Assembly: GCF_055900595.2 (NCBI RefSeq)
Contig: NZ_CM148325.1
Reading direction: 5' to 3' (one strand)
Length of the DNA: 64,000 bases
Part shown: positions 17,981-54,900 of the stretch, in pieces
Layout: the number at the start of each line of letters is the position of its first letter
Numbering within the stretch: the stretch's first letter is position 1
Position numbers and translations under genes: made by a program
The notes under the pieces: generated by a model
The model's input: the letters and a program-made list of their open reading frames with translations, nothing else
Told to the model about the DNA's origin: nothing
Database searches by the model: none

Positions 17981-18056
<76 letters not shown>

Positions 18057-18110
18057 GTTTAAAAGACATCGGCCTCAAGCGGATGTCTGGCTGAAAGGCC
18101 TGAAGAATTT

Positions 18111-18184
18111 GGCGCGTTAACAAAGCGGTTATGTAGCGGATTGCAAATCCGTCTAGTCCGGTTCGACTCCGGAACGCGCCTCCA
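18111..18184 (+). tRNA. cysT: tRNA-Cys (anticodon GCA)
   Basis: 74 nt GGCGCGTTAACAAAGCGGTTATGTAGCGGATTGCAAATCCG...CGCGCCTCCA. Confidence 0.97.
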
Positions 18185-18196
18185 CTTTCTTCCCGA

Positions 18197-18283
18197 GCCC
18201 GGATGGTGGAATCGGTAGACACAAGGGATTTAAAATCCCTCGGCGTTCGCGCTGTGCGGGTTCAAGTCCCGCTCCGGGTACCA
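18197..18283 (+). tRNA. leuZ: tRNA-Leu (anticodon UAA), long variable arm
   Basis: 87 nt GCCCGGATGGTGGAATCGGTAGACACAAGGGATTTAAAATCCC...GGGTACCA. Confidence 0.97.
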
Positions 18284-19205: not shown

Positions 19206-20417
19206 TCACCCCACTTCTGGTAACAACCCTGCCGCAATCAAAAATTGCACGCCAATCACAGCAATACCACAGAGAAACACCACCACCAGCGCCGGACGAC
19301 CACCTTTCACCCGGTAACCCGCCTGAGGATTGTGCTTTCTGCTTTGCCAGGTCAACAGCGAAGGGATAATCAATGCCAGTACCGCCAGCGCCACACCGGC
19401 GTAACCCAGCGCCATCACAAATCCTCGTGGATAAAACAGTGCAAACGCCAACGGCGGCAGAAAGGTAATTGCACCAGTTTGCAACCGTCCACCAACGGTA
19501 TTTGAACGCTGAAATAAATCAGCCAGATAATCAAATAAGCCTAACGCAACGCCGAGAAATGACGTGGCGAGGGCTAAATCAGCAAATAAATGCACTGCCA
19601 GCTCAACATGCGGAGAGGCCACCATTTCGCGTAACGCCTGTAACAGCCCGTTTAATCCAGCATGATTAGCCAGCAATCCCATAAAGGTTGTTGAATCAAT
19701 GCTGCCAAGCGTTGCCACCTGCCAGAAAATATATGCCACCAGGGGGATCGCACTACCGGTTATAAACACCCAGCGTAGCTTACGAACGTTGCCATCCATA
19801 TAGCTGACAATACTCGGCACGCTACCGTGAAAACCAAATGAGGTAAAAATCACCGGGATTGCTGACAGAGCCAGCCCCTGTTGCAACGGCAGGGTTAAAA
19901 GATTCACTTTGTGAATATGCGGTAGTAGCAATACCAGCATCACCACCAGAAAAATAATTTTGGCGCTGAACAGAAAACGGTTAAATAAATCGACCAGCGA
20001 TGTTCCAACACAAACCACGCCACCGGCAACAAAAGTGAACAACAGCACGCCAGCGGTTGCCGACATTGAAATACCTGTCCAGTCGCTGATGCTGGAGGCC
20101 AACAATTCACCGGCACCGCTGATGTATGCCGCAGTCAGAGCATACATTAAGAACATCATACTGAAGCCCGTCAGCCATTGACCGTAGCGTCCCAGATAGC
20201 GTTTTGCCAGCGTGCCTAGACCGGTATCTGCCGGAACATGCTGGTACACCTCCAGCAGTAATAGCGCCGTGTAGCACATCAACGCCCAAAGCCCAATCAA
20301 CAAGATTAACGTAACGCTAAAACCAACACCGGCCGCAGCCAGCGGCATTGCCAGCATGCCTGCGCCAATTGTGGTTCCCGCCACGATAAAAACACTTCCC
20401 AGGGTTCTGTTTTTCAC
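19206..20417 (-). CDS. tyrP: Tyrosine-specific transporter TyrP
   Basis: Track ORF 403 aa; matches K-12 TyrP. Confidence 0.93.
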
Positions 20418-20508
20418 GCTTTCTTCTGTCCTGACGATCTTTATGAGTGATATCTGCGGCGCAGGTTAAGGCATAACGGCTGCTTCGTCAAACCGACGTT
20501 ACATATGG

Positions 20509-20526
20509 TGTAAATATAAATGTACA
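20509..20526 (-). promoter_or_regulatory. TyrR box in the tyrP promoter
   Basis: TGTAAA-TATAAA-TGTACA matches TyrR consensus TGTAAA-N6-TTTACA; weaker adjacent box CGTCAA-N6-GTTACA at 20486-20503. Confidence 0.7.
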
Positions 20527-20607
20527 ATAAAAAGCATTCAGTCCTGCGCTGGCGCAAAGTCTTCATAAGCGGCAATCGCTACGCTAGGCTTTTTTTGAGG
20601 AGGGACG

Positions 20608-20847
20608 ATGGACTCTATTCACGGTCATGAAGTGTTAAATATGATGATTGAATCAGGCGAGCAATATACGCATGCCAGTCTGGAAGCTGCGATTAAAGCG
20701 CGTTTTGGTGAACAGGCACGTTTTCACACCTGCTCGGCAGAAGGGATGACAGCGGGAGAGCTGGTAGCGTTTCTGGCAGCAAAAGGCAAATTTATACCTT
20801 CGAAAGACGGTTTTTCGACCGATCAGAGTAAGATTTGCCGTCACTGA
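20608..20847 (+). CDS. yecH: Uncharacterised protein YecH
   Basis: Track ORF 79 aa; matches K-12 YecH as recalled. Confidence 0.85.
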   Translation: MDSIHGHEVLNMMIESGEQYTHASLEAAIKARFGEQARFHTCSAEGMTAGELVAFLAAKGKFIPSKDGFSTDQSKICRH

Positions 20848-50046: not shown

Positions 50047-50802
<756 letters not shown>

Positions 50803-50847
50803 TTTTTACCGTTGCATCATGTCGCCCAATATGATGCTTGCTCGTAC

Positions 50848-50881
50848 CAGGCCCCTGCAATTTCAACAGGGGCCTTTTTTT
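50848..50881 (+). terminator. Rho-independent terminator of yecM-cutC
   Basis: AGGCCCCTG...CAGGGGCCT hairpin followed by TTTTTTT. Confidence 0.85.
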
Positions 50882-54802: not shown

Positions 54803-54900
54803 GCCGGATGCGACGTGAACGCCTTATCCGGCCTACAAAATTGTGCAAATTCAATATATTGCAGGAGATGAGTAGGCCTGATAAGCGTAGCGCATCAGGC
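54803..54900. repeat. REP pair (BIME) between torZ and cmoB
   Basis: GCCGGATGCGACGTGAACGCCTTATCCGGCCTAC (54803-54836) and inverted GTAGGCCTGATAAGCGTAGCGCATCAGGC (54872-54900). Confidence 0.75.

Follow-up and report, generated by a model that had tools for sequence, protein, structure and literature searches.

The tyrP operator-promoter of Escherichia coli K-12, a part of the TyrR regulon studied in the Pittard laboratory, is a textbook example of how a single regulator can either repress or activate one promoter, according to its ligand and oligomeric state. In reconstructed gammaproteobacterial regulons, tyrP is among the most conserved members of the TyrR regulon (PMC5343134). TyrR boxes are called strong if they match the consensus at 10 or more of 12 positions and weak if they match at fewer, with the G-N14-C arrangement essential in either case (PMC4374768). 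On strong boxes, TyrR dimers bind without help; hexamers, which form with tyrosine and ATP, occupy a strong box jointly with the weak box next to it (PMC4374768, PMC6524683). For tyrP, PMC3424551 describes a tyrosine-bound hexamer on neighboring sites of high and low affinity, which brings about repression, and a phenylalanine-bound dimer on the high-affinity site only, which contacts RNA polymerase and leads to activation. An unliganded dimer is described as slightly repressing in the passage of PMC6524683 that cites Yang et al. (2004).

For activation, a strong box must lie upstream of the -35 hexamer (PMC7142922), and the alpha C-terminal domain of RNA polymerase takes part (PMC4374768); TyrR is counted among the class I activators (Lawley et al. 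1995, cited in PMC4374768). At aroP, mtr, and akr-ipdC of Enterobacter cloacae, it is likewise a strong box that nucleates TyrR, with an adjacent weak box filled only cooperatively, and at all of these, as at tyrP, the outcome is set by the position of the boxes relative to the promoter (PMC4374768, PMC7142922).

The tyrP locus and its two TyrR boxes

The DNA considered here is a 64,000-nt stretch (the window) of RefSeq contig NZ_CM148325.1. It comes from the chromosome of E. coli: of 5426 complete genomes of this species, 5420 have a match to an 801-bp piece that surrounds the boxes and overlaps annotated tyrP, yecH, and ftnA, and 5410 contain a 91-bp core of the operator region. The gene order is uvrC, pgsA, glyW-cysT-leuZ, yecA, tyrP, yecH, ftnA, yecR, azuC, yecJ, ftnB. 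By the open reading frame list and RefSeq annotation, tyrP occupies 19206-20417 on the minus strand and encodes a tyrosine:H+ symporter of 403 amino acids with a GTG start; its identity was taken from the RefSeq annotation of identical or near-identical DNA (strain L73; K-12 b1907). The divergent neighbor, yecH, lies at 20608-20847 on the plus strand. Both boxes are in the 190 bp between the two genes, and thus upstream of tyrP as the preliminary description had placed them. This intergenic region is base-for-base the same as in K-12 MG1655, so that the classical K-12 work on tyrP and TyrR applies directly; it was in this strain that the control of tyrP by TyrR was worked out. Binding by TyrR, filling of the weak box dependent on tyrosine and ATP, and activation dependent on phenylalanine are reported for the same K-12 sequence in papers that PMC3424551 and PMC6524683 cite.

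Some features of the wider surroundings may be recorded here. Strain L73 and the window are 100% identical in the tyrP region, as compared over 801 bp. In L73, a large anti-phage gene annotated in RefSeq as hhe (DUF4011; positions 1-657 of locus L001) ends about 0.7 kb upstream of yecA, where the window and K-12 have uvrC and pgsA; the area around the tRNA cluster therefore varies between strains. The cluster itself, Gly(GCC)-Cys(GCA)-Leu(TAA), is at 17981-18283 on the plus strand, between pgsA and yecA. It corresponds to K-12 glyW-cysT-leuZ, and the K-12 annotation puts the small RNA 3'ETS-leuZ just downstream of leuZ. Three other small RNAs in the window had Rfam matches above the gathering score: MicL (50574-50881; 370 bits), C0465 (36506-36583; 112 bits), and ES036/CssrF (54837-54879; 68 bits).

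Boxes were scored against the published TyrR consensus, an 18-bp dyad TGTAAA-N6-TTTACA with 12 specified positions, rather than against a weight matrix built from other TyrR sites. The sequence at 20509-20526, which had been proposed to fit the consensus, matches at 11 of 12 positions (minus strand; TGTAAATATAAATGTACA on the plus strand, TGTACATTTATATTTACA in tyrP orientation) and is the strong box. The sequence at 20486-20503, proposed as a weaker box, matches at 9 of 12 (minus strand; CGTCAAACCGACGTTACA on the plus strand, TGTAACGTCGGTTTGACG in tyrP orientation). Both have the G-N14-C arrangement, with G at position 2 and C at position 17. They are separated by a 5-bp linker at 20504-20508, TATGG on the plus strand, whose length is fixed and whose sequence is unconstrained, so that the plus strand over 20486-20526 can be written CGTCAAACCGACGTTACA-TATGG-TGTAAATATAAATGTACA. 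The box centers, at 20517.5 (strong) and 20494.5 (weak), are 23 bp apart as described. Because tyrP is on the minus strand, upstream corresponds to higher coordinates: the strong box is promoter-distal and the weak box proximal. No paper turned up in a full-text literature search for the literal sequences of the boxes and the promoter.

The strong box is the sole sequence in the 64 kb with no more than one mismatch to the consensus, where 0.17 are expected. One such site or more turned up in 16 of 100 shuffles of the window, and on this count the box could conceivably be a chance AT-rich palindrome of no regulatory role. Its position argues otherwise, within 190 bp upstream of a gene already known to belong to the TyrR regulon, as does its partner at a fixed spacing: the expectation for a pair of at least 11/12 and at least 9/12 at ±23 bp is about 1.3e-4 per 64 kb, a chance on the order of 1e-4, and no such pair appeared in 200 windows simulated with a first-order Markov model. 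Together with the behavior of its arms across species, which are invariant over 81 sequences while the spacer between them diverges, this leaves chance with a negligible probability. The weak box by itself is not significant, since sites with up to three mismatches number 41 in the window against 28 expected. Three sites with two mismatches are found elsewhere in the window (4231, 15507, 50066); all are inside long open reading frames and have no partner box, and they were taken as chance matches.

Promoter geometry and conservation at orthologous loci

A published table of K-12 transcription start sites (PMC3415461, Table S1) includes one for tyrP with a 38-nt 5' UTR. The sequence given there for -50 to +1, TATGTAACGTCGGTTTGACGAAGCAGCCGTTATGCCTTAACCTGCGCCGCA, is identical to the window and puts the tyrP start at an A at 20455 on the minus strand, with the leader running from 20455 down to 20418. 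This start is supported by 8 reads from one dataset; the same position was also inferred independently, from a conserved TA..CT hexamer and the GC-rich stretch following it. The corresponding -10 hexamer is TAACCT (20463-20468, minus strand; -13 to -8), matching TATAAT at three of six positions, and the -35 hexamer is TTGACG (20486-20491, minus strand; -36 to -31), matching TTGACA at five of six, with a 17-bp spacer between them. A consensus promoter and terminator scan of 20380-20640 found none, a result that is uninformative given the poor -10: the scan missed it because TAACCT has only three of the six TATAAT positions.

The GC-rich stretch, GCGCCGC at 20456-20462, separates the -10 hexamer from the start site. 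Of its seven positions, five hardly vary across species (79-81 of 81 sequences), and the predominant base at the other two is found in 52 and 63. It may, from its sequence and placement, be a discriminator-type element, in which case growth-rate or stringent sensitivity of tyrP would be suggested.

Relative to +1, the strong box extends from -71 to -54 (center -62.5) and the weak box from -48 to -31 (center -39.5), and the -35 hexamer falls within the weak box's right arm. The introduction of PMC4374768 has it that a strong TyrR box overlaps the tyrP -35 hexamer; by the sequence and the mapped start site, the overlap is with the weak box. The arrangement fits the regulation ascribed to it, with the weak box over the core promoter for repression and the strong box upstream of -35 for activation. 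Several of these details go beyond the preliminary description: the minus-strand orientation of tyrP, which makes the strong box the distal one; the TTGACG within the weak box; and the sharing of the region with a divergent yecH promoter.

Conservation was examined in a set of orthologs collected by a TyrP protein scan with one genome per species, which yielded 80 loci; the footprint comprises 81 sequences. The genera represented are Escherichia, Citrobacter, Salmonella, Klebsiella, Raoultella, Enterobacter, Kosakonia, Kluyvera, Leclercia, Lelliottia, Atlantibacter, Franconibacter, Yersinia, and others. Both boxes are present at all 80 loci. At 79 they are at about -109 (strong) and -86 (weak) from the start codon, within 4 bp; the exception is one Yersinia locus, with the boxes further upstream. 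A weak box functions only beside a strong one, at a distance that is constant and helically compatible; here the 23-bp spacing of the centers is invariant in all 81 sequences.

Within the boxes, conservation is concentrated in the arms. In the strong box, G2, A4, A16, and C17 are the same in 81 of 81 sequences and T3 in 80, around a variable, AT-rich 6-bp spacer. In the weak box, the left arm has G2, T3, and A5 in all 81, A4 in 80, and T1 in 76, while on the right side T12 through C17 are found in all 81 and G18 in 79. The weak box scores at least 9/12 with G-N14-C in 77 of the 81 sequences, and 8/12 in the other four. Arm positions carry 1.3-2.0 bits each, apart from the strong box's position 1 and the weak box's position 6; columns of the linker have 0.3 bits or less, and spacers and linker are mostly below 0.7 bits. 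The promoter is conserved as well: positions 1-5 of the -35 TTGACG are found in 81 of 81 sequences and its final G in 79, and T1, A2, C5, and T6 of the -10 TAACCT in all 81. On a finer scale, when the window was aligned with four sequences from E. coli and three from elsewhere in Escherichia, neither box showed a change in its arms within E. coli; the substitutions in this alignment are located in the flanks, the spacers, and the linker. Such a combination of conserved arms with freely varying spacers and a constant spacing is, as read from these alignments, what would be expected of a two-site protein operator.

A third TyrR-like site, matching at 9-10 of 12 positions (for example CGCTAACGCAGGTTTACA), was seen at several Citrobacter, Enterobacter, and Kosakonia loci (L008, L012, L018, L049, L050), about -174 to -186 from the tyrP start codon. 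E. coli does not have this third upstream site.

Might the strong box be the only true TyrR site, with the weak box no more than a -35 hexamer plus a chance likeness to the consensus, dispensable for repression by tyrosine? Matches of 9/12 are common in the window, as the counts above indicate, and seven of the invariant positions of the weak box, TTTGACG, coincide with the -35 hexamer and its flank; much of the conservation of this box (TTGACG) could be owed to -35 and not to TyrR. Promoter conservation alone is insufficient, however, because the left arm of the weak box, TGTAA at -48 to -44, is outside the -35 hexamer, yet it is nearly invariant. On either side of this arm the 5-bp linker and the 6-bp spacer vary freely, and still the 23-bp distance to the strong box is constant. 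Hexameric TyrR is moreover reported on both the high- and the low-affinity site in tyrP repression, in the account of that mechanism in PMC3424551. A dispensable weak box is accordingly considered highly improbable, and a functional pair is the preferred reading.

The yecH side of the intergenic region

The boxes lie between divergent genes and could chiefly, or additionally, be at the service of yecH, much as TyrR serves akr and ipdC in E. cloacae, where there is precedent for its action on divergent promoters (PMC4374768). The K-12 table (PMC3415461, Table S1) includes a yecH start that maps to 20597, giving an 11-nt leader; likely -10 and -35 hexamers are TAGGCT (20585-20590) and TTCATA (20562-20567). 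The strong box is 82 bp upstream of the yecH start codon and centered at -79.5 from this start site, which counts in favor of an effect on yecH, but -79.5 is a non-standard phase for an activator. The comparison among species also points the other way. While yecH is the divergent neighbor at 63 of the 80 loci, it is absent from the flank at 17, and anything from 182 to 658 bp separates tyrP from yecH; neither distance nor neighborhood is conserved on the yecH side, and the boxes are locked to tyrP. That they hold their distance to tyrP despite the changing neighbor and intergenic length argues that they belong to tyrP. In the yecH literature no paper was found that links the gene to TyrR, and none that names a regulator for the palindrome described below; what it does yield is a sigma-28 SELEX peak inside tyrP and a twofold drop in yecH expression on over-production of SlyA. 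Regulation of yecH as the main or an additional role of the boxes is thus thought improbable, and assignment of the boxes to tyrP is retained.

Transcription of tyrP and of yecH starts back to back, at sites separated by 142 bp. A 12-bp palindrome, TGCGCTGGCGCA, is located between yecH and the strong TyrR box, at 20545-20556 (context 20543-20560), spanning -52 to -41 of the yecH start site. Across genera the sequence is retained as CCTGCGyTAGCGCAAAG, about 50-65 bp upstream of the yecH start codon, a more or less constant distance. It is possible, if rather unlikely, that the strong box also modulates yecH and that TGCGCTGGCGCA is a site for another regulator of this gene, which encodes an uncharacterized metal-binding protein; the tyrP-yecH intergenic region would then hold more than the textbook tyrP operator.

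Regulation of tyrP and comparison with known systems

The two boxes together make up, with little room for doubt, a composite operator for TyrR at the sigma-70 promoter of E. coli tyrP. The case is made directly by the sequences, the significance of the pair, the mapped start, the identity to K-12, and the footprint; TyrR binding, its dependence on cofactors, hexamerization, and contact with the alpha C-terminal domain are taken from the literature, the mechanism by way of secondary citations. The boxes are conserved along with a gene of aromatic amino acid transport, the tyrosine transporter gene tyrP. A literature search for ChIP-exo, ChIP-seq, SELEX, or footprint data on TyrR at tyrP gave nothing directly useful.

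At low concentrations of aromatic amino acids, a TyrR dimer would be expected on the strong, high-affinity box centered at -62.5. In the presence of phenylalanine, a dimer on this box would stimulate RNA polymerase from a class I position, and tyrP transcription would go up. With tyrosine and ATP, TyrR would self-associate to a hexamer, nucleated on the strong box, which would also fill the adjacent low-affinity weak box at -39.5, and tyrP would be repressed. Because the weak box contains the -35 TTGACG, its occupancy should block productive binding of RNA polymerase, and a protein at -39.5 over this hexamer would presumably be in competition with sigma-70 region 4. Insertions between the boxes, as in the "tyrP+3" promoter of Yang and coworkers (1996), are said to uncouple repression from activation.

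The preliminary description had called this a layout that allows repression with tyrosine and activation with phenylalanine; the box scores, the identity to K-12, and the accounts of tyrP in PMC3424551 and PMC6524683 all support it. Both boxes had been located exactly by reading the sequence alone, and this is confirmed. From the 81-sequence footprint and the mapped start, the geometry is fixed: the boxes are centered at -62.5 and -39.5, the weak one enclosing the -35 hexamer. As a discovery this matters little. What was found is no relative of the TyrR regulon's tyrP operator but that operator itself: the description is correct, already known, and ordinary.

Compared with the K-12 tyrP operator there is no difference: locus, boxes, and promoter are the same, as is the start 38 nt upstream of the GTG, and the window strain is identical in this region. 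The comparison with mtr is more instructive as to arrangement. There, both boxes are upstream of the -35 hexamer and 8 bp apart, and both cofactors activate; at tyrP, in contrast, the boxes are 5 bp apart and the weak one lies over the -35 hexamer, and it is through this combination that the same protein would repress with tyrosine and activate with phenylalanine. Beyond the TyrR regulon, there is a class I likeness to CRP at lac (-61.5), the strong tyrP box at -62.5 being upstream of -35 and compatible with contact to the alpha C-terminal domain. Unlike CRP, TyrR is a regulator resembling the enhancer-binding proteins that works with sigma-70, and it is hexamerization that switches it to a repressor.
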